Shown in pieces: positions 1 through 10,951 of a stretch of 46,421 nt of DNA (its first letter is position 1; the number at the start of each line of letters is the position of its first letter). The DNA is taken from the IMG/VR virus record IMGVR_UViG_2541047773_000007, one strand, 5' to 3'. The DNA comes from a virus (taxonomy: Duplodnaviria > Heunggongvirae > Uroviricota > Caudoviricetes). A model generated the notes under the pieces. It was not told the DNA's origin, did no database searches, and saw only the letters and a program-made list of their open reading frames with translations. Position numbers and translations under genes: made by a program.

Positions 1-1284
1 TTACAGACTTCTGGACGGTTGCGCAGCTCTTACAACATGTGGTTGATCTTCTGCGGCGTCTTGCAGCGCACTTAAATCACGGTCTTTCACTTCTGGCATT
101 TTCAGCGCAGAGATTAAACCAATCACAGAATATGCCATGATCATAATGGCGATCGGATACCAGGATTCCGTCATGGTGCAGAAAATCCCCGCCAGGATAG
201 GACCAAAACCGGAAGCGATAAGACCACCAATTTCTTTAGAAATAGCCATTCGGGTAAAGCGGTTTTTACAGCCGAACATTTCTGCCATGGTAATGTTTTC
301 CAGAGCAAATAATCCAAGCACCGCACAGTTATGAATCACAATCAGTGCAACCATAATGGTGCTCGGGGCATAGCTTTTATCTACGATGATAGAAAGCATT
401 GGCCATGCCAGCACAATCGCAGAGGTATTCATAATAATATACGGGATCCGGCGACCAATTTTATCGGATAACCAACCAAGGAACGGAATGGTCATAAAGC
501 CGAGAATCGAACTGATCATCAATGCATCTGTTGGAATTGCTTTGTTAAACAATAACGTCTGCACTAAATAGCCTGCAAGGAAAGTCTGAATTAAACCTGA
601 GTTACCAGCCTGACCAAAACGCAGCCCTGTTGCCAGCCAGAAGGATTTGCTCTGGAACATGCTACCAGCAGGTGCAGGTTTTGCTGTCGGTTGGTTGCTG
701 TCGTTAACCTTCTCAAAGACCGGGCTTTCTTTCAGATTCATACGCAACCAGATAGCAAAGACCATCACGACAACGCTCGCCAGGAAAGGTATACGCCATC
801 CCCACGCCAGCAGTTCCTCTTTACTGAGAATGAAGAACATAAAGGCCCAGATTGCCGTTGCGCTCAAGGTTCCGCAGTTAGTTCCCATAGCCACAAATGA
901 GGAGATAATTCCGCGCTTACCTTTTGGCGCATATTCCGCCAGCATCGTACCGGCACCGGAAATTTCCGCACCTGCACCCAACCCCTGAATAATACGCAGC
1001 GTCACCAGCAAGATGGGGGCAAAAACACCAATTTGTGCATAAGTCGGTAACACACCAATTAAGGTGGTACAGATCCCCATCATGGTGATGGTAATAAAGA
1101 GCACTTTTTTACGCCCTATTCTGTCGCCCATTTTGCCGAAAATAAATGCTCCGACAATACGTGCCACATAACCTGCACCATAGGTTCCCATTGCCAGAAT
1201 TAACGCCATTGCCGTTGATGATTCAGGAAAAAATATTTCATGAAACACTAACGCTGCGCCGAGCGAATATAACTGGAAATCCAT
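1..1284 (-). CDS. ydfJ: MFS metabolite:H+ symporter, apparently N-terminally truncated (YdfJ-like)
   Basis: 427-aa polytopic protein with sugar-transporter-like motifs (GKMGDRIGRK, WGWRIPF); N-terminus begins inside the first TM region compared with ShiA/KgtP-type relatives; lies directly next to a Qin-type prophage end. Confidence 0.6.
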   Translation of the reverse strand: MDFQLYSLGAALVFHEIFFPESSTAMALILAMGTYGAGYVARIVGAFIFGKMGDRIGRKKVLFITITMMGICTTLIGVLPTYAQIGVFAPILLVTLRIIQGLGAGAEISGAGTMLAEYAPKGKRGIISSFVAMGTNCGTLSATAIWAFMFFILSKEELLAWGWRIPFLASVVVMVFAIWLRMNLKESPVFEKVNDSNQPTAKPAPAGSMFQSKSFWLATGLRFGQAGNSGLIQTFLAGYLVQTLLFNKAIPTDALMISSILGFMTIPFLGWLSDKIGRRIPYIIMNTSAIVLAWPMLSIIVDKSYAPSTIMVALIVIHNCAVLGLFALENITMAEMFGCKNRFTRMAISKEIGGLIASGFGPILAGIFCTMTESWYPIAIMIMAYSVIGLISALKMPEVKDRDLSALQDAAEDQPHVVRAAQPSRSL

Positions 1285-2069
1285 AATTCACAGGTGTTTT
1301 TTCCCATCCTGTGGTTTCCTTGGCGTTTTCTAGGTTTTTTCAGATAGTTGCATTTTTTAAAAAGCATCCTAAGTTCGATCTCAGTGTCTATCTGGGGCCT
1401 ATTTCTGTCCCATATATGCCCCAAAAAAACTCCTCAACAGATAAGTAGTTTTTTCATGGAGTTACGCGTAAAATCAATAACGGCTGGAAATCATTCAATA
1501 CTCGCACTATCGAAAAATTTACCAGCCAACCGCAGCACGTTCTTGCATAAGGCGTGTCTGCGGTTTTTCAACTATTCAGATACATCACTCCCATCACATT
1601 CATTCCTCCGCATCAAAGGCATATAGGCTATATCACCTTGATATTTTTCTTCTTCAGATAAAAACTGTTATCTATGTATACTTTTAAACCCAATCCGTGT
1701 AGAGTCTCTGCATAAGATAGTTTGCAGTTGCCACTTCAGCTTGCGCCATAAACCGCCTGATTTTTGCCGCCATCTGTTAGCATTCCTGTATACCTGAAAC
1801 GACAATGTTTATCTACGAACTTTAAGAACACCCAGGATAAAAATTGTCAACTATATCATATATAACACATTACTAATTCGAGGCTATATGAACAGCATAC
1901 TGATAATCACTTCGCTCCTTATCATATTCAGCATTTTTAGTCATGCTCTAATAAAATTAGGGATTGGCATATCCAATAACCCAGACAAAACCGATGTATA
2001 AGTCAACATATCCTGAATCAGACATACAATATCGCAATGAAAATCAATAATATTTTAAGGAATATATTC

Positions 2070-2303
2070 ATGAAATCAAAAGACACCCTAAAGTGGTTCC
2101 CTGCGCAGCTTCCTGAAGTCAGAATTATCCTAGGGGATGCTGTAGTGGAAGTAGCAAAACAGGGAAGACCTATCAATACCAGAACATTGCTTGATTACAT
2201 TGAAGGAAACATAAAGAAAAAATCATGGCTGGATAACAAAGAATTATTACAAACAGCGATATCAGTTCTTAAAGACAACCAAAATTTAAATGGTAAAATG
2301 TAA
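2070..2303 (+). CDS. ydfK: YdfK/YnaE-family cold-shock-induced prophage protein
   Basis: 77-aa product MKSKDTLKWFPAQLPEVRIILGDAVVEVAKQGRPINTRTLL... starting at the internal ATG of the 88-aa track ORF; matches recalled K-12 YdfK. Confidence 0.7.
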   Translation: MKSKDTLKWFPAQLPEVRIILGDAVVEVAKQGRPINTRTLLDYIEGNIKKKSWLDNKELLQTAISVLKDNQNLNGKM

Positions 2304-2619: not shown

Positions 2620-3210
2620 ATGTCTCGAATTTTTGCTTACTGTCGGATATCAACGCTGGATCAGACCACCGAAAATCAACGCCGGGAAATCGAAAGTGCA
2701 GGTTTTAAAATCAAACCTCAGCAAATAATCGAAGAACACATTAGCGGCTCAGCAGCAACCAGTGAGCGTCCTGGTTTTAACCGGTTGCTTGCTCGCCTGA
2801 AATGTGGTGATCAATTGATTGTGACAAAACTGGATCGCCTTGGTTGTAATGCAATGGATATCAGGAAAACAGTGGAACAACTGACCGAAACAGGTATCAG
2901 AGTGCATTGCTTAGCATTGGGGGGCATTGACCTGACCAGTCCAACAGGAAAAATGATGATGCAAGTAATTTCAGCAGTCGCTGAATTTGAACGAGACCTT
3001 TTACTTGAACGCACTCATTCCGGGATAGTAAGAGCCCGGGGCGCAGGGAAACGTTTTGGTCGACCACCTGTGTTAAATGAAGAACAGAAACAGGTGGTAT
3101 TCGAACGGATTAAGTCAGGTGTAAGTATAAGTGCCATTGCCCGGGAATTCAAAACCTCGCGGCAAACCATTTTAAGAGCCAAAGCAAAACTTCAGACACC
3201 TGACATATAA
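2620..3210 (+). CDS. pin: Serine recombinase, Pin/Gin/Hin-family DNA invertase
   Basis: 196 aa; N-terminal catalytic region [14 protein letters not shown] (Ser nucleophile), resolvase core, C-terminal HTH; Pin-like size. Confidence 0.9.
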
Positions 3211-3437
3211 AAAATAATCTCGGTGTGAGATGCCTTACGTCTTCCAAGCCCCCTTCCTTGCCGTAAATGGAAAGATACATCTAATTATAGAATTTATATG
3301 TTTTACCCTACGGCAGTGCTGGCCATTCAATATCCTGTGCAGTTGACGTATCAACACGGTTCAGCAACACCCGATACTTCTTCCAGGCTTCCCGCAACGA
3401 GGTTTCTTCCTCCGTTGCATATACAGCTCACCTTTTT

Positions 3438-3746
3438 TCACCCACGATTAACCAACAGCCAGACCAGCAGACACGCCACCACCGGCACAGCAAAATCCAT
3501 CAGGCTTGCCACATCCCACGCGCGCGGATCAAAACCGCCCCACCACGGCATATTCATTCGCTTGCCATGCCCGAACATTTCAATCCAGCGATATTCTGCC
3601 TGGGTGTGTTCACGCGCAATGAAGAACGTACAACCGGCTATCGCCCCGTAAGCCCAGTTCCCGGTAAAAAGACCAATCAGTAGCTGCGCAGCCACAGCAC
3701 AAAGCGCATGAAGGAAAGGTGTTATATCCATTTTCATCCTACCCAA
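3438..3746 (-). CDS. Small hydrophobic protein of unknown function
   Basis: 102-aa ORF with two strongly hydrophobic segments between the tail-fibre genes and pin; no recognised domain. Confidence 0.4.
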   Translation of the reverse strand: MGRMKMDITPFLHALCAVAAQLLIGLFTGNWAYGAIAGCTFFIAREHTQAEYRWIEMFGHGKRMNMPWWGGFDPRAWDVASLMDFAVPVVACLLVWLLVNRG

Positions 3747-3773
3747 TAAAACGGGGCGCTCGGCCCCTTAATA

Positions 3774-4814
3774 TTATTTAGACGCAAGCGCCGCCTCAAT
3801 TGCAGATAATCTTTGTCTTAATTCTGCGTTTTCTTCTTCCAGTGCTGTTATTCTGTCGTCTGACTCTCTGGCTACCTGAACAAGCAAGCCAGTAACACCA
3901 GAATAATCTACTGTGTAATAACGTTCACCTTCTTCACCTTCCGATCCGCTTGCACCGTCCTGATATTTCATTGCGGAACCTACAACTTCTGGGATTGCTT
4001 CCAGAGCTTCCTGTGCAATGACACCAGCATAGGGCATACCGTTTTCTTTAAGCGTGTATGTATAGCCGTTCATTTTACGGATGCGGTCGGTTGCATTATC
4101 GATCACCTGAATGTTGTCTTTCAGATCCCGGTCGGAATGCTGGTTAAATGCGGTGGCATGACATGCACCATTAACGCTTAACATATAGGTGTTATCGGTA
4201 TTTTTCTGCGCATAGAACATATAAGCGCCACCATCAACACCGACTTCATAAACAACAGGACGGCTGGTGTTGCCCCACAATTGAGCAGTAACACCAGCAT
4301 AAGCGGTTCCCTGTGTGTTTAATGTCATGGTTGACCCATGATTGGCATATTTGATCTGTAATGTGTCGGTGTAATCAAATTTAATAAGCGCGTTACTTCC
4401 ACGCTTGCTGTATGACATAAGGCAGTTACCCATTTTGAGGTATCCGCTGTCACCGGGAAAAATCATCGTACCGCCATAAAGGTTGGTAAAGTCCCAGCAA
4501 ATGTTTGTCCCGTTATCGTTCAGGTTAAGGCGCGCCATTGCGTTACCTGGACTGTCTATCCATTTTTTGAGGTATAGTTCGCAATACGCATCCTCAACAC
4601 CTGCCGTCCTGTGAGTTGAGCGGAGTTTTCTCCCAAATATAGCTCCGCTAGTTGGCAATACCTGCTGATACCATGAAGCAGACCAGTCACCAACGATTTC
4701 ATCTTTGCTGTCTACATATAATTTTGTTGCGTAGCTTCCTTGATCGTTTTTTAATTTGCTAACGTCGGATTTTAGCGTTTTGATGTCATCAGGAATTACT
4801 GTCGATGTAGCCAT
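3774..4814 (-). CDS. Tail-fibre/tailspike-like protein with C-terminal intramolecular chaperone (peptidase S74-like) domain
   Basis: 346 aa; C-terminus DRDLKDNIQVIDNATDRIRKMNGYTYTLKENGMPYAGVIAQEALEAIPEVV...RITALEEENAELRQRL is typical of auto-cleaving chaperone domains of phage fibres and endosialidases. Confidence 0.7.
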   Translation of the reverse strand: MATSTVIPDDIKTLKSDVSKLKNDQGSYATKLYVDSKDEIVGDWSASWYQQVLPTSGAIFGRKLRSTHRTAGVEDAYCELYLKKWIDSPGNAMARLNLNDNGTNICWDFTNLYGGTMIFPGDSGYLKMGNCLMSYSKRGSNALIKFDYTDTLQIKYANHGSTMTLNTQGTAYAGVTAQLWGNTSRPVVYEVGVDGGAYMFYAQKNTDNTYMLSVNGACHATAFNQHSDRDLKDNIQVIDNATDRIRKMNGYTYTLKENGMPYAGVIAQEALEAIPEVVGSAMKYQDGASGSEGEEGERYYTVDYSGVTGLLVQVARESDDRITALEEENAELRQRLSAIEAALASK

Positions 4815-4823
4815 TTTTCTTCC

Positions 4824-5105
4824 TCACATCCAGCCACGAAGTTGATGCTCAACAGCAACCACGTATTCATCGAATAATGACGATATTTGCGAATCATTAA
4901 TGATGCGCACGTTTACAAAATATCCGTCTTCCTTAACACATACCGGTTCGCCATCTTCAGTCAGTTCTCCGGTTTCTTTGTACACGTTACCTATCACGTC
5001 AATAAGAATATCATCCTGCATCGACTCGTCATCATAATAGCCAGTGCTATCCATAAAGGCCGAAAAGTCGGCCCTGTCGGCAAATTTGAGTGTTAAATCT
5101 TTCAT
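4824..5105 (-). CDS. Hypothetical acidic protein in tail-fibre operon
   Basis: 93-aa ORF translationally coupled (ATGA overlap) to the stf stop; acidic; no recognised motif. Confidence 0.45.
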   Translation of the reverse strand: MKDLTLKFADRADFSAFMDSTGYYDDESMQDDILIDVIGNVYKETGELTEDGEPVCVKEDGYFVNVRIINDSQISSLFDEYVVAVEHQLRGWM

Positions 5106-7483
5106 TAGATTGACTCCCCCACCTGAGCATCAGTCAATGCCTTGTGCCATATTCTGAAATTCCTGACATGACCAAATAAATGACGTAACCCGGCTGTAGT
5201 CTGGCCTCCAATACGGATAATTGCGGTGTTCTGAATACAGGACCATGTGGTTTTTGTTTCGCTGGATATATGCCCGTTACTTACTGAGCACGTAGACTGC
5301 TCTGACTTTACACGCATCCCCATAACCATTTTTTCAAGCGATGCGTTTTCGTTTACCCGTCTGTTAGCTCCTCCAATATCGCAATAAGGAAATCCGTCGT
5401 AATCTGTTGAACGACCGAAGCCAAGAATAATAGCCGCTCCGGTTTGATGACCGCCGGTATCAAAAACACGTGGCGCTGCATTTGGCGTTTTATACCAGTT
5501 CTTATGTACCTCACAAAGAACCGTAAAAGGAAGATTATAAAGATTATTCTTAATTGGAACTGTAACTATATCGCTTGCGCGGGTCGCCGCCGTCGCTCCT
5601 GATATAATAAAAGATGATACACAAGGCCCATCTTCTACTTGTGGGGTGGCCAGATAAATATAGTCACCAGATACGGTTGCCCCGCTCTGCTTAGGAGAAT
5701 ACTGTATCTGAGAGCCTATTTTTAACTCCCCATCAATTGCCTGAATTGTTGCCTCTGCAAAAATCCATCCGGTAGCTTCGTCCTTTCTGACTCTCGCTGT
5801 AATCCTTGAGGCAGCACCGCCTGTCATATTAATTTCAAGCGTTTGTGTATCAATATACGCATCACCAAGAAAAGTTGTTGCGCTACCGTCATATTTATCA
5901 AACCGGATACGCAACCTTACCTGCAGTTCTGTTTTAAAACGACATGAGGTTGTCACGTGTTTATTATCGCCTGAGACATCAACTGACTTTGTTGCAGCAA
6001 TTGATGCCATATTAATGGCTGAGGTTTGCCCAATCAGAGAATCGTTGCAGACAAACTTTCCATAGGTAAAACCAAAATTATCCGTCCCTGTTTCGGGCAC
6101 ATCCATATTTGACGATCGCCCCCAACTGGCAGGGCTTTCCGAATTGAGCATGTAGTTTGTTCTTTGCCCCTCAATAAGCAGGCCATCACGTTCAAATCGT
6201 GGCTCGTCAATGGCAGCCTCTGTCAGCACACCAGATTTGTTAATATAGGTTGCTTTCGATGCACGTTTAAACTTAACAATCTTGTCGCCAGGCATCGTTA
6301 TTTCATCGTCACCAATAACAATTTTTTTATATGACGGCGAAAAGCCCGTAATCATATCCAGCGAATCGTTAAATGGTATCCACACATCAGGCAGCGGCTG
6401 TAAGACATATTTATACGGCTCCGCAGCCTGGCTTGCGTACTCTCTGGCTGCATCTTCGCTTGCTTTAGCTGCCGTCTGGCTTGCTGCCGATGCTTTCGCT
6501 GAGTTCGCAGCCGCTGTTTCGCTCACCTTTGCGTTGGTTTCACTGGTTTTTGCTGCTTTTTGACTGTTAGCTGATGCAGTGGCAGAAGCAGCCGCCGCGC
6601 TTGCAGAACTGGCTGCGGCACTCTCGCTTTGAGCCGCTGCATCCTGACTGCTTTTCGCCGCAGTTTCACTGGCTTTGGCATTCGTTTCGCTGGTCTTCGC
6701 TGCCGTCTGGCTGGACTTTGCGTTAGTTTCACTCGTCTTCGCAGCTTTCTGGCTGTTAGCCGTAGCAGTTGCTGATCCAGCTGCTGAAGTCGCAGAACCG
6801 GCTGCCGCGCTCTCGCTTTGGGCTGCTGCAACCTGGCTGTTTTTTGCCGCAGTTTCACTGGCTTTAGCATTCGTTTCGCTGGTCTTCGCTGCCGTCTGGC
6901 TGGACTTTGCGTTGGTTTCGCTCGTCTTTGCGGCTGTCTCGCTATTTTTCGCGTTGGTTTCTGATTTTTTAGCTGCTGTTGCGGAGTTTGCCGATGCAGT
7001 CTGCGAGGCCGCTGCCGCCTGTGCGCTGTTAGCTGCATTCGTTTCTGAGGTTTTCGCCGCGTTCTTCGATGATGCCGCTGCAGTTTCGGATTTCTTTGCC
7101 GCCGCTGCGCTCTGAGAGGCGGCTTCAGCGTTGCGTGCCGCTTCTTCCACCATTTCCTCAAAACGACGCAATGCCTCCGGCATGACATCATCTTCCGTCA
7201 TGGCACCGAGAAAATCATTCAGCGTACCTGGTCTGGAACCTTCATAGACGGTAATGGTTCCGGCATGTGAAGGCGGAAAACCTTCAACAAGCAGGATAAC
7301 GCTGTACTGGCCATACTCAACATCCATGCTGTAACGCCCGGCTTCATCCGGATTTTCAGAGGCCACCGTGTTCACCAGTACCGTGGTGCTGTTACGCTTT
7401 GCCTTCAGTTGAATAGTGCAGTTCTGTATTGGTTTTCCCGCACCATCTTTCAGCACACCTGAAATCTGTACTGCCATACTCAC
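5105..7483 (-). CDS. stf: Side tail fibre protein (Stf) with distinct C-terminal receptor-binding region
   Basis: 792 aa; N-terminus MSMAVQISGVLKDGAGKPIQNCTIQLKAKRNSTTV... is lambda Stf-like; long SETNAK/AAKTSETNAK repeat tract; C-terminal roughly 430 aa unrelated to lambda Stf. Confidence 0.85.
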   Translation of the reverse strand: MSMAVQISGVLKDGAGKPIQNCTIQLKAKRNSTTVLVNTVASENPDEAGRYSMDVEYGQYSVILLVEGFPPSHAGTITVYEGSRPGTLNDFLGAMTEDDVMPEALRRFEEMVEEAARNAEAASQSAAAAKKSETAAASSKNAAKTSETNAANSAQAAAASQTASANSATAAKKSETNAKNSETAAKTSETNAKSSQTAAKTSETNAKASETAAKNSQVAAAQSESAAAGSATSAAGSATATANSQKAAKTSETNAKSSQTAAKTSETNAKASETAAKSSQDAAAQSESAAASSASAAAASATASANSQKAAKTSETNAKVSETAAANSAKASAASQTAAKASEDAAREYASQAAEPYKYVLQPLPDVWIPFNDSLDMITGFSPSYKKIVIGDDEITMPGDKIVKFKRASKATYINKSGVLTEAAIDEPRFERDGLLIEGQRTNYMLNSESPASWGRSSNMDVPETGTDNFGFTYGKFVCNDSLIGQTSAINMASIAATKSVDVSGDNKHVTTSCRFKTELQVRLRIRFDKYDGSATTFLGDAYIDTQTLEINMTGGAASRITARVRKDEATGWIFAEATIQAIDGELKIGSQIQYSPKQSGATVSGDYIYLATPQVEDGPCVSSFIISGATAATRASDIVTVPIKNNLYNLPFTVLCEVHKNWYKTPNAAPRVFDTGGHQTGAAIILGFGRSTDYDGFPYCDIGGANRRVNENASLEKMVMGMRVKSEQSTCSVSNGHISSETKTTWSCIQNTAIIRIGGQTTAGLRHLFGHVRNFRIWHKALTDAQVGESI

Positions 7484-7537
7484 TCCACAAATAAAAAAGG
7501 CGCCATTTCTGGCGCCCGTATTGGGGTTATAAATATT

Positions 7538-10500
7538 TCAACGGATACTGATACCGGAAGCAGCTTTTTTGGTCACAATCACCGTACAGTCTGTGATGTT
7601 ACCTGCGCCCTGATTGCCTTTCTGGAAAATCTTAAACTCCAGAGTGACGTTACCACCACCACTCGGCATATCAATAACCGCACTGTAACTACCGGGAATG
7701 GCTCCTTTAGTTTCTCTGGATGCGATTAATACGCCATTTTTGCGAACTTCAAAACCATAACCCGTGTATCGCGTACCTCCCGGGTTATTACCGCTCCCCG
7801 GATCGTCATACGCCACACCGTTAAAAATAATGGGCGGAATAATGATTTGGCGGTCAAAGTTATGATCATCGTAAATGGTGACTGTAACCGTCCCGTTTGG
7901 TGTTTCCGTGTTACCCCACGTACCAGCCTTTTTCGGGAATGATTTGGATACAGTTTTAACGAAGTCACCTCTGACCTGGTTCGCCTCCAGCATGCCCTTA
8001 ATCGTACAGTTTTCATTTACCGTGACATTATTGAGCGTCCCGGAGTTCGCATTCACGTTACCGCTGATATCGGCATTTTTCGCCGTCAGCCGCCCGTCCG
8101 GTGTCAGGGAAAATACCGGAGGATTGCCGCCACTGGTAATGGTGGGAGCCGTCAGATACTTCAGGAACACTTCGTTCATGAATATCTGGTTGCCCTGCGC
8201 CACAAACATCGGCGTTTCATTCCCGTTTGCCGGGTCAATAAACGCGATACGGTTAGCGGCAACCAGGAACTGGCTCAGTTTGCCTTCCTCCGTATCCTCC
8301 ATGCTGAGGCCAAGCCCCGCGACATAATGTTTGCCGTCTTTGGTCTGCTCAATTTTGACGCCCCACATGGCATTCCATTTATCGTTGGCGTCCTTCCACT
8401 CTTTCGAAAACTCCTCCAGTCTGCTGGCGTTATCCTCCGTCAGCTCGACTTTTTCCAGCAGCTCCTTGCCGAGATGGGATTCGGTTATCTTGCCTTTGAA
8501 AAAATCCAGGTAACCTTCCGCATCATCGCTCGCCCGACCGACGGCCTCCACGAATGCCGATTTGCCAACGGTGTTCACACTGCGGATGTAAAAATAATAA
8601 TCATGGCCCGGTTTGATATTGATACTGGCGGCTATCCAGTACAGCGCCGTACCAAGATAGCGGGCTGTGGTTTCAACCTGCCTGATATCGGTAATCCGCT
8701 TTTCCGAGAACCAGAACTCAAACTGTACCGTCGGATCATAAACCGCAAGATGCGGCGTGGCGGTTATCTGAAAATAGCCCGGCGTCAGCTCAATCCGCGA
8801 TGGTGCTGCCGGTGCGGCAATCCGGAACGATACCGACGCCGGATCGCCCTGCTGCCCCCACGCATTTACCGCCCGGACTGTCAGACTGTAATTTCCCAGA
8901 GCCAGCTGCCTGAAGCGGTATGTGGTTTCCGTCGTCCGGGCCGTGCTGACCAGCCGCTCACTGCCGTCATCCGCTGCCACGGTCAGGCGAAGCATAAAGC
9001 TCACGCCCTTCACCACCTTCGGCGTATCCCAGCGCGCCAGCACCTGGTATTCCCCGCTGTCTGCGGTGACTTCGGCGGTCAGGTGCTGCACCGCTGGCGG
9101 CGTGACACCATTCACCGTGCCGCTCTGGTCGCCGTCAAAGTGCGCCCCGTTATCCACGATGGCTTCTTTTTCCGGTACATGCTGCACGGCAGTGATGGCA
9201 TACGTGCCGTCATCGTTCTCACGGATACTCACACAGCGGAACAGGCGCTGACGCAACGTCGGCAACTTCAGCCCCCACACACTGTATTCTGCAACGCCGT
9301 CAGGAACCCGATTCACTTTCACCTTAAGTCCGTCGGTGACGGACTGAACCTCCACGCTGACCGGATTACCACTTCCGTCAACCAGGCTTATCAGCGTGGT
9401 ACCGGAGGATGGCAGCGTGATTTCACGGTCGAGCGTCAGCGTCCGGGTCTGGCTGTTCACCGCCAGCACGCGACCACCGGTGCTGATACCGGCATAGTCA
9501 TCATCGCAGATTTCAATGACATCGCCCGGTACATGGCGAAGCCCTTCAGCACCCACGCTGAAATCCACGGTCTGCGTCTCCAGCAGTTCCGTTTTAATCA
9601 GCCACAGCCCGGCGCGGTGTGCCTGCCCCCGGCTGGTACAGCCAAAGGCATCCATCTTCGTGACATTACGACCGTAACGGGCAATGGCCTGCGTATCTTC
9701 AACAAGCTCTGTCGCCGTCTCCCAGCCGTTGTTCGGGTCAATCCAGTTCACCTCAACGGCATTATGGCGGTCCTTCAGGGCGCTGAAGCTGTAGCGGAAC
9801 GGCGCGCCATCATCCGGCATCACCACATTACTGCGGTTATAGGTCCACACCTTATCTGATGGTCGGTCCTGCACGAACGTCAGCGTCTGCCCGTTCCATA
9901 CCGGCATACAGCGCATCGCCGAGCAGAAATCACTGAGCACATCCCACGCCTTACGCTGCGTGGTCAGCCAGGCATTACAGGTGATGCGCGGCTCCGTGCC
10001 GCCAAAGCCGTCCGGCACCGACTGGTCGCAGTACTGGCCGATGACATACAGCGCCCATTTATCCACATCCGACGCACCAAGACGTTTTCCCATGCCGTAG
10101 CGCGGATGGGTCAGCATATCCCACAGACACCAGGCCATGTTGTTGCTGTATGCTGGCTTAAACGTTCCGTCCCAGATACCGCTGTATTGTCGCGTCTGCG
10201 GGTTATAGTTCGACGGCACCTGCAGAATGCGCCCGCGAAGATGATAATTACGACTCACCTGCTGGCTGCCGAACTGTTCCGAGTCCACCTGCACGCCAAC
10301 CAGTGCCGTGTTCGGGTAGCACTGTTTCACATCGATGATTTCGGTGTATGACGACCAGAGCGTTTTGTTCTGCAGCTGGTCTGTGGTGCTGTCCGGTGTC
10401 ATCCTGCGCATCCGGATATTAAACGGGCGCGGCGGCAGGTTACCCACCACCACCGATGCCAGATACTGTGAGGTGGTTTTGCCTTTAATGGTGATGTCTT

Positions 10501-10951
10501 TTTCCGTCACCCAGCCACCGTTACGCTGTATCTGAACCAGCAGGCGGACTTCCGACGGATTCCGGTCCCCCTTTGAGGTGGTTTCCACCAGTGCCTGCAC
10601 ACCGAAGGTAAAGCGCAGACGGTCGATGTTTGCAGACGTGATGGTCCGGGTAATCGGCGTGTCGTACTTCACTTCCGTACCCAGCACCGTCTCGGAGCCG
10701 GAGGATTCAAATCCCTCCGGCGGTGTCTGCTCCTGCTCACCTGCCCGGAAAACCACCGTGACACCGGAGATATTGGTATTCCCCTCACTGTCCAGCACTG
10801 GCGTACTGTTCAGCAGCACACTTTTTAATCCGTCCACCGGACCTTCAACCGGCCCTTCACTGATGGCGTCTATCACGCTCAGCATCTGCGTGGACTTCAG
10901 GTTGTCCTTCGCTTCGCGCGGGGTATGCCCCTTACTGCTGCCTTTACCCAT
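7538..10951 (-). CDS. J: Host specificity protein J (central tail fibre)
   Basis: 1137 aa, lambda gpJ-like throughout, located after tail assembly protein I. Confidence 0.95.

Follow-up and report, generated by a model that had tools for sequence, protein, structure and literature searches.

A probable two-part side tail fibre of the lambdoid phage Tritos and its small conserved partner protein

The range of strains to which a temperate phage adsorbs is decided by its side tail fibres, and an unfamiliar arrangement of fibre genes raises the question of how the encoded proteins are put together. In the 46,421-nucleotide stretch of viral DNA analysed here (Caudoviricetes; IMG/VR record IMGVR_UViG_2541047773_000007; called the window in the following), the side tail fibre gene stf is followed by a gene for a 93-residue acidic protein and by a gene for a 346-residue protein that ends in an intramolecular chaperone domain. 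A prediction made from the sequence alone had called this locus unusual and had left a choice between a second, separately encoded receptor-binding protein and a modular replacement of the usual pair of stf and the tail fibre assembly gene tfa. Which of these applies, or do the three products belong to one appendage? Our answer is that the three genes probably specify a single side tail fibre in two parts, belonging to the functional lambdoid phage Tritos, in which the 346-residue protein forms a distal fibre on Stf. Judged from its sequence, the fibre locus is common and has largely been described before, being homologous to a published example in phage IrisVonRoten; the part of real interest is the ~93-residue protein.

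Source phage and the three fibre genes

A 4.2-kb stretch with the fibre locus shows 100% identity both with Escherichia phage Tritos (OV696610) and with the chromosome of E. coli LF82, where prophage Tritos interrupts ydfJ. LF82 is a Crohn's-disease-associated strain, and work on its prophages is in progress. Virions of Tritos are set free spontaneously, siphovirus particles appear in transmission electron microscopy, and a plaque obtained on MG1655 hsdR- could be propagated (PMC9928086). Because of this propagable plaque and these siphovirus particles, the locus belongs to a working phage. The Tritos three-gene cassette is real and functional. The locus is also far from unusual, contrary to the original prediction: of 5,426 complete E. 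coli genomes, 372 contain 80% or more of the 4.2-kb stretch, all three proteins have full-length matches among the PHROG families, and the small protein recurs in 181 phage records (among them phage 21, several lambda-like phages of the gut, Dhillonvirus records, T5-like phages with 100-118 kb and phages with 135-140 kb). The three genes lie tightly packed downstream of the tail-tip gene J (7538-10951), at the positions first assigned to them (Stf at 5105-7483, counted from the GTG):

5105-7477, minus strand: stf, proximal side tail fibre, 790 residues from the ATG at 7477 (792 residues from the GTG at 7483); annotated by the Prokaryotic Genome Annotation Pipeline (PGAP) and in ENA; phrog_1419
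4824-5105, minus strand: gene of the 93-residue acidic protein, from the list of open reading frames (ORFs); phrog_1361 over its full length
3774-4814, minus strand: gene of the 346-residue protein, a putative distal fibre or receptor-binding protein, from the ORF list; phrog_4563 over its full length

The ATG at 7477 is the likely start of Stf: it is the choice of PGAP, and the lambda Stf chain in PDB entry 9E7M begins at the same methionine. The start of the 93-residue gene overlaps the stf stop by 1 nt (TAATG) and is preceded by a GGGGGAG Shine-Dalgarno sequence, and the 346-residue gene follows after a 9-nt spacer with a Shine-Dalgarno sequence of its own (GAGGAAG).

This order is conserved well beyond Tritos. 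In a first scan of 80 IMG/VR loci, every locus with enough downstream sequence contained a fibre gene, the 93-residue gene, the 9-nt spacer and a gene whose product begins with MATSTVIP-DI--LK, the fibre itself ending in RHLFGH-RN-RIWHK-LTD. At least three types of protein occupy the distal position: the 346-residue type with a chaperone domain, a 234-residue type and, in P2-like prophages, a 303-residue type with a gp37-like tip that is followed by a Caudo_TAP-type Tfa. T5-like contigs carry pb4, LtfC, a 784-residue fibre, a 92-residue and a 326-residue protein in the same arrangement, and the same order was found in two other contigs carrying a J-like gene; the distal proteins of these contigs are distant relatives of the 346-residue protein. 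Distal proteins starting with M-x-T-x-T-x-I-P-x-D-I are encoded in lambdoid, T5-like and other contigs and in P2-like prophages. The distal fibre is an optional, exchangeable add-on and, because the anchors differ among these phages and only the laminin-G (LamG)-type fibre end and the small protein are common to them, its docking partner should lie within the module.

Two putative binding domains: the Stf end and the distal protein

The domains that bear on this reading are the following:

7085-7477, minus strand: N-terminal tail-attachment domain of Stf (PF08400, residues 3-133; Pfam E=1.8e-67)
6527-6961, minus strand: Ala/Ser/Thr-rich repeat shaft of Stf (Tandem Repeats Finder)
5108-6439, minus strand: C-terminal 444 residues of Stf, predicted from an AlphaFold2 (AF2) model to be a ConA/LamG-like jelly-roll lectin unit, with the motif RHLFGHVRNFRIWHKALTD at the end
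5576-6178, minus strand: sub-domain of this unit (NCBIfam NF048003, Stf residues 436-636), homologous to the head-spike fibre of RcGTA, the gene transfer agent of Rhodobacter capsulatus
3777-4136, minus strand: Peptidase_S74 intramolecular chaperone of the 346-residue protein (Pfam match at 3981-4136)
4749-4814, minus strand: conserved N-terminal motif MATSTVIPDDIKTLKSDVSKLK of the 346-residue protein, a putative docking segment (family alignment)

The lambda-like N-terminus and the repeat shaft that had been assigned to Stf are both present. PF08400 is the only Pfam domain found in Stf (225.9 bits against a cutoff of 26.6), and residues 3-96 match the lambda Stf chain in 9E7M (E=1.7e-49). The shaft repeat has a period of 189 bp and 2.2 copies (6527-6943) with sub-repeats of 42 and 21 bp. 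Stf alleles range from 727 to 803 residues and differ in shaft length, which suggests that the repeat expands and contracts. Two further ORFs inside the shaft region, one of 222 residues (window 6523-7191, minus strand) and one of 146 residues (6675-7115, plus strand), lie in an alternative frame and in antisense; they are by-products of the Ala/Ser/Thr-rich 189-bp repeat and no genes.

The C-terminal region of Stf, which ends in ...HLFGHVRNFRIWHKALTDAQVGESI, had been described as novel with a lectin- or LamG-like character. The first half of this description has to be given up: the 444 residues retrieve 2,038 cluster representatives at E<=1e-3, and NCBIfam already holds a model for part of them (NF048003, "head spike fiber domain"; matched with 50.5 bits, the cutoff being 36). 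The second half is borne out by the structure prediction that had been suggested as a check. [quoted passage not shown] Its fold-likeness scores are given here for the carbohydrate-binding domain 4 of AbnA (20.1), the baseplate protein gp46 of phage Pa193 (17.4), the Hc-N domains of botulinum toxins (15-18), CBM40 and sialidase lectin domains (15-16), and pentraxins and laminin-G domains (12-14.5); the last ~140 residues also give a weak profile match to pentraxins and botulinum toxin Hc-N. In the members inspected, the domain forms the C-terminal end behind very different anchors, including those of the lambda Stf type and the P2 H type.

The same profile matches the RcGTA head-spike fibre Rcc01080 (6TB9) with E=2e-31, in agreement with the NF048003 match. 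Rcc01080 is a single flexible subunit that binds the capsule of R. capsulatus (PMC7296036, PMC10218006). Because of this homology to a capsule-binding fibre, the most economical inference is that the Stf end is itself a glycan-binding unit. The two proteins differ in their setting: Rcc01080 is found at the vertices of the capsid of a gene transfer agent, where an N-terminal peptide of Leu-Gly repeats serves as its anchor, whereas the lectin unit of Stf ends a trimeric tail fibre, and the Stf family has a further pentraxin/LamG-like region at its C-terminus.

The chaperone domain that had been recognised at the end of the 346-residue protein is likewise clear: Peptidase_S74 (PF13884) matches residues 227-278 with 52.8 bits against a cutoff of 22, and the protein resembles the long tail fibre distal subunit in 6F45 in sequence (E=0.0014). 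At the expected cleavage position it reads HS227-D-R-D-L-K232, and S227, D228 and K232 are each conserved in at least 90% of the family alignment. For S74 domains a catalytic Ser/Lys dyad with +5 spacing has been described (PMC3742443). Because the conserved residues have this spacing, we predict self-cleavage at S227|D228 with K232 as the dyad partner. The Pfam match, the 6F45 match and the Ser/Lys pair place the domain beside those of the K1F endosialidase, the L-shaped fibre protein pb1 of T5 and the distal fibre protein gp37 of S16; the difference is that in Tritos the domain ends a short, separately encoded protein and that its cleavage is only predicted.

In the alignment of this family, a conserved stretch of ~22 residues at the start and a conserved S74 region enclose a variable middle, with M1, T5, I7, D10, I11 and L14 invariant among 15 sequences. 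The N-terminal motif also occurs in distal proteins that carry unrelated tips in P2-like, T5-like and other contigs. Full-length relatives down to 71% identity number in the thousands, and relatives of 307-348 residues extend to 38%. Relative to the window allele, the ratio of nonsynonymous to synonymous substitution rates (dN/dS) of the gene is 0.13-0.46 at dS of up to 1.46, which indicates purifying selection. In the PHROG comparison, the C-terminal half of the protein resembles long-fibre ends: residues 132-342 can be aligned with the final ~210 residues of the 1,210-residue fibre family phrog_6578, the N-terminal part of which matches Stf. The same tip, as this resemblance shows, can be part of a fibre fusion or the product of a separate gene.

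Proposed assembly of the fibre and possible role of the small protein

How do these parts compare with known fibres? The tip of lambda Stf is gp37-like and needs the chaperone Tfa. Tritos Stf has a nearly identical PF08400 domain and lies in the same position after J and a terminator; it differs in its lectin-type end, in a 93-residue partner unrelated to Tfa and in the additional distal fibre. Phage 21 represents a two-gene form, in which Stf with a LamG-type end is followed by a 92-residue protein 54% identical to that of Tritos and the distal fibre is missing. In the long tail fibre of T4, gp34, gp35, gp36 and gp37 supply, in the order of their genes, a proximal fibre, a small protein at the joint and a distal part that binds the receptor; the likeness of its jointed plan to the Tritos locus is an analogy only, as no homology was detected.

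The closest counterpart is found in IrisVonRoten (Bas32, Tequintavirus), where bas32_0022, bas32_0023 and bas32_0024 are homologous to the three Tritos genes and stand in the same order. Its gp22 (796 residues) has the same LamG-type end (62.6% identity over 444 residues), gp23 (92 residues) is 37.6-38% identical to the Tritos 93-residue protein, and gp24 follows after a 9-nt spacer, starts with MVTKTVIPTDITKLK and ends in a chaperone domain; spacer, N-terminal motif and chaperone domain are shared with Tritos. In the authors' description, gp22 is the proximal fibre, from which a "galectin-like" C-terminal domain protrudes that may serve in additional binding, and gp24 is proposed to be a T-shaped distal fibre that ends in a chaperone domain and is attached to gp22 (PMC11990801). 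Three differences are evident: the anchor is of the T5 type (LtfC and an LtfA-like N-terminus) instead of the lambda PF08400 type, gp24 has 574 residues and an additional Gp12-like binding domain whereas the 346-residue protein has a single binding domain, and Tritos is temperate. A further parallel, drawn from the descriptions in the papers, is provided by LtfA and LtfB of DT57C and DT571/2: the second fibre reaches the virion only via the first, and each recognises its own O-antigen type (PMC4728585, PMC10713586). Here, too, two fibre proteins confer two specificities on one appendage; however, these papers describe no small intervening protein, and the attachment of LtfB is backed by genetics whereas that in Tritos is proposed. 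In the literature on lambda Stf engineering and on phage Hf4s we found nothing on this module.

From these comparisons the following assembly can be proposed. Stf would be fixed to the tail tip in the manner of lambda Stf, and a surface glycan would be bound by its lectin unit. The 346-residue protein would trimerise with the help of its chaperone domain, which would then cut itself off at S227|D228 and leave a distal receptor-binding fibre of ~227 residues, and the N-terminal ~22 residues of this fibre would dock onto the distal end of Stf. The 93-residue acidic protein, the translation of which is probably coupled to that of stf, would most likely stay at the junction of shaft and lectin unit as an assembly or joint factor that helps to form the docking site, and the whole cassette would have taken the place of the usual Stf tip and Tfa. 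The attachment geometry, the receptor binding and the role of the 93-residue protein are deductions of this scheme. The choice posed by the original prediction is in any case too narrow: its second, separately encoded receptor-binding protein stands insofar as the 346-residue gene is a genuine, separate fibre gene, but the evidence fits a distal fibre mounted on Stf and not an independent one.

What, then, can be said about the small protein? It is acidic, as first described (21 Asp and Glu against 7 Lys and Arg; isoelectric point of 4.05), and its dN/dS of 0.08-0.74 lies below 1, as does that of the 346-residue gene. Neither as a single sequence nor as a profile does it match anything in Pfam, NCBIfam or the PDB, the PHROG families that it matches are of unknown function, and comparison with Tfa yields an hhalign probability of 0.2% and no Caudo_TAP match. 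We found no paper that addresses it; gp23 is neither modelled nor discussed in the BASEL paper (PMC11990801). A scan of species-diverse genome contigs (14 loci; taxa outside Enterobacteriaceae and Aeromonas under-sampled) places it behind LamG-ended fibres in Escherichia, Leclercia and Aeromonas. The Aeromonas and Leclercia fibres are 26-30% identical to the Tritos Stf C-terminus, and they are followed by an overlapping gene for an acidic protein of ~99-104 residues that aligns end to end with the 93-residue protein; common to the small proteins are a D-L-x-L start, a GY-x-VNVR core and a P-x-R-x-W end. On this comparative evidence, the ~93-residue protein is to be regarded as a conserved partner of LamG-ended fibres. 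The claim that Stf lacks a Tfa partner therefore holds only in part: there is no intact Tfa, given that neither the 93-residue protein nor the ORFs of 97 and 102 residues match Caudo_TAP in Pfam, but Stf does have a conserved partner, and a remnant of tfa lies at about 3308-3418.

Two-gene and three-gene loci carry different alleles of the small protein, and in the seven loci compared, the degree of its identity goes with that of the distal N-terminus and not with that of the Stf C-terminus. Two loci illustrate this by their identities:

L003 (P2-like): Stf C-terminus 92%, small protein 47%, N-terminal 25 residues of the distal protein 44%
L086: Stf C-terminus 52%, small protein 91%, N-terminal 25 residues of the distal protein 76%

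We tentatively suggest that the small proteins make up a widespread family not recognised before, which might act as a joint or adaptor that stays at the end of the proximal fibre and builds a standard socket jointly with the conserved M-x-T-x-T-x-I-P-x-D-I N-terminus, a possibility that we hold with less than even confidence.

Several observations weigh against the proposed assembly or parts of it. The AF2 monomer model of the 346-residue protein, with a helix at residues 9-28 and a long C-terminal helix at 305-344, is poor (pLDDT 61.7, and 36-51 for residues 231-310), and a Foldseek search of the PDB with this weak model gave no match at E<0.1 (the TM-score of ~0.16 with T4 gp34 carries no meaning); a weak monomer model is expected of a trimeric fibre. 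In the IrisVonRoten study, gp22 and gp24 were predicted separately (S7 Table, PMC11990801), so that the attachment is inferred there too. Tritos plates on rough K-12, which leaves a requirement for either binding domain conjectural. The small protein also occurs where the distal fibre is absent, as in phage 21, most phage 21-type prophages and several Aeromonas and Leclercia loci: in about three quarters of the 43 loci of a second scan with enough downstream sequence, the small gene is directly followed by a membrane-protein gene. Because of such loci, the small protein has to be assigned to the LamG-ended fibre with the distal fibre as an option, and its primary role could be unrelated to docking. 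Its co-variation with the distal N-terminus, finally, could reflect function or only the linkage of adjacent DNA.

These last points lead to the alternative that survives best, although we consider it unlikely: the 93-residue protein would be only a transient, non-structural chaperone of the LamG-ended Stf, analogous to Tfa, and the distal fibre would dock on Stf directly. The two-part fibre would then still hold, and only the role of the small protein would differ. In favour of this reading, the gene occupies the usual Tfa position right after the fibre gene, is translationally coupled to stf and goes along with LamG-ended fibres at loci with and without a distal fibre gene (phage 21, the E. 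ruysiae locus L087, Aeromonas). Against a chaperone of this kind speak the absence of similarity to Caudo_TAP, any Pfam family or any PDB sequence, the confident modelling of the LamG unit as a self-contained globular domain, and the RcGTA homologue, which forms a single subunit per spike; neither of these last two suggests that a trimerisation chaperone is required. Moreover, the 93-residue sequence varies with the distal N-terminus and not with the LamG domain.

It is considerably less probable that the 346-residue protein is an independent second fibre or spike attached elsewhere, for example at the tail tip or on J. Its separate gene has a ribosome-binding site of its own, and phages with two independent receptor-binding proteins are known (PMC11990801); however, proteins with the same N-terminal motif are found only behind a LamG-ended fibre and the small protein, the hosts of the motif include lambda-like and T5-like siphoviruses as well as P2-like myoviruses, whose tips and baseplates are unrelated, and the N-terminus consists of a short motif and then a helix, with no recognisable anchor domain. 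The scenario that the original prediction had named as its own refutation, in which the 346-residue ORF would be a pseudogene remnant formed by the C-terminus of a decayed fibre gene, was rejected as very improbable: the alignment with the end of phrog_6578 and partial copies of 254, 194 and other lengths in the databases would suit such a remnant, but they are outweighed by the conservation of the full-length form and of its start, Shine-Dalgarno sequence and 9-nt spacing, by the occurrence of its N-terminal motif with unrelated tips, by its dN/dS and by the propagable plaque of the host phage.

Some variants of the module are recorded here as observations in their own right. Three Aeromonas loci contain an extra small ORF between the LamG-ended fibre and the partner gene (L089, 6218-6496; L091, 6185-6415; L094, 6191-6490); it comprises 76 residues in L091, with longer calls in the other two, and has a CC-x2-HD-x-DY motif reminiscent of phospholipase A2 active sites. 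In Leclercia adecarboxylata (L095, 6539-7539) the distal position is taken by two consecutive ORFs of 243 and 85 residues, the second of which resembles an S74 chaperone end, so that a frameshift in the gene is possible; at the N-terminus, MANRIDTAELS... departs from the MATxTxIP motif. Several records titled 'Campylobacter phage' or 'Listeria phage' (MG065692, MG065676, MG065635, OR848352 and others) carry an E. coli-type small gene (38-39% identity) that resembles those of T5-like and rV5-like coliphages; these records may be mislabelled or contaminated.

Locus history, neighbouring genes and host range

The surroundings of the cassette retain traces of an older arrangement and include these further features:

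7498-7517, minus strand: hairpin resembling a terminator, between J and stf; the annotation of phage 21 has a terminator at this position
3753-3767, minus strand: GC-rich terminator-like hairpin, GGGGCCGAGCGCCCC followed by a T-run, directly after the 346-residue gene
about 3308-3418, minus strand: C-terminal tfa remnant (PGAP pseudogene)

Adjoining the tfa stump, an intact pinQ-like serine invertase of 196 residues is encoded at 2620-3210. We considered whether the module might be an invertible segment of the Pin/Gin type and rejected this: with up to 3 mismatches allowed, no site resembling gix turned up, nor were there convincing inverted repeats flanking the module. The invertase appears to have been orphaned after the loss of an invertible fibre-tip segment. 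The stump and the invertase fit a replacement of an older stf-tfa arrangement, possibly an invertible one, by the present cassette, and in this respect the modular replacement that had been proposed is upheld.

Directly after the fibre module, behind the terminator-like hairpin, follows a 97-residue protein (window 3438-3731, minus strand; phrog_1443), the homologue of which in phage 21 is annotated as a membrane protein with two transmembrane segments. Lambdoid and P2-type (L148) prophages have a homologue of it behind the module, with or without a distal fibre, whereas the T5-like loci and the L100 and L103 contigs examined have none; the protein may have a lysogen-expressed or exclusion function linked to the fibre genes. 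The window itself begins in ydfJ (1-1284, minus strand), which PGAP marks as truncated by the prophage insertion, and the cold-shock-type genes ydfK and ynfT lie between ydfJ and pin (2037-2303, plus strand). A Tritos 'DNA binding transcriptional regulator' was reported in the LF82 paper to be expressed ~8-fold above background in the lysogen; presumably this is the cold-shock-type gene near 2037-2303.

For the adsorption of Tritos, a lectin-ended Stf together with an exchangeable distal fibre leads one to expect two separate specificities of binding in a single appendage. Break points for host-range engineering are defined as well, one after the LamG end of Stf and one after about residue 22 of the distal protein. 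If the small protein does help to form a standard socket, lambda-like, T5-like, T1-like, rV5-like and P2-like phages could plug in interchangeable distal receptor-binding fibres.

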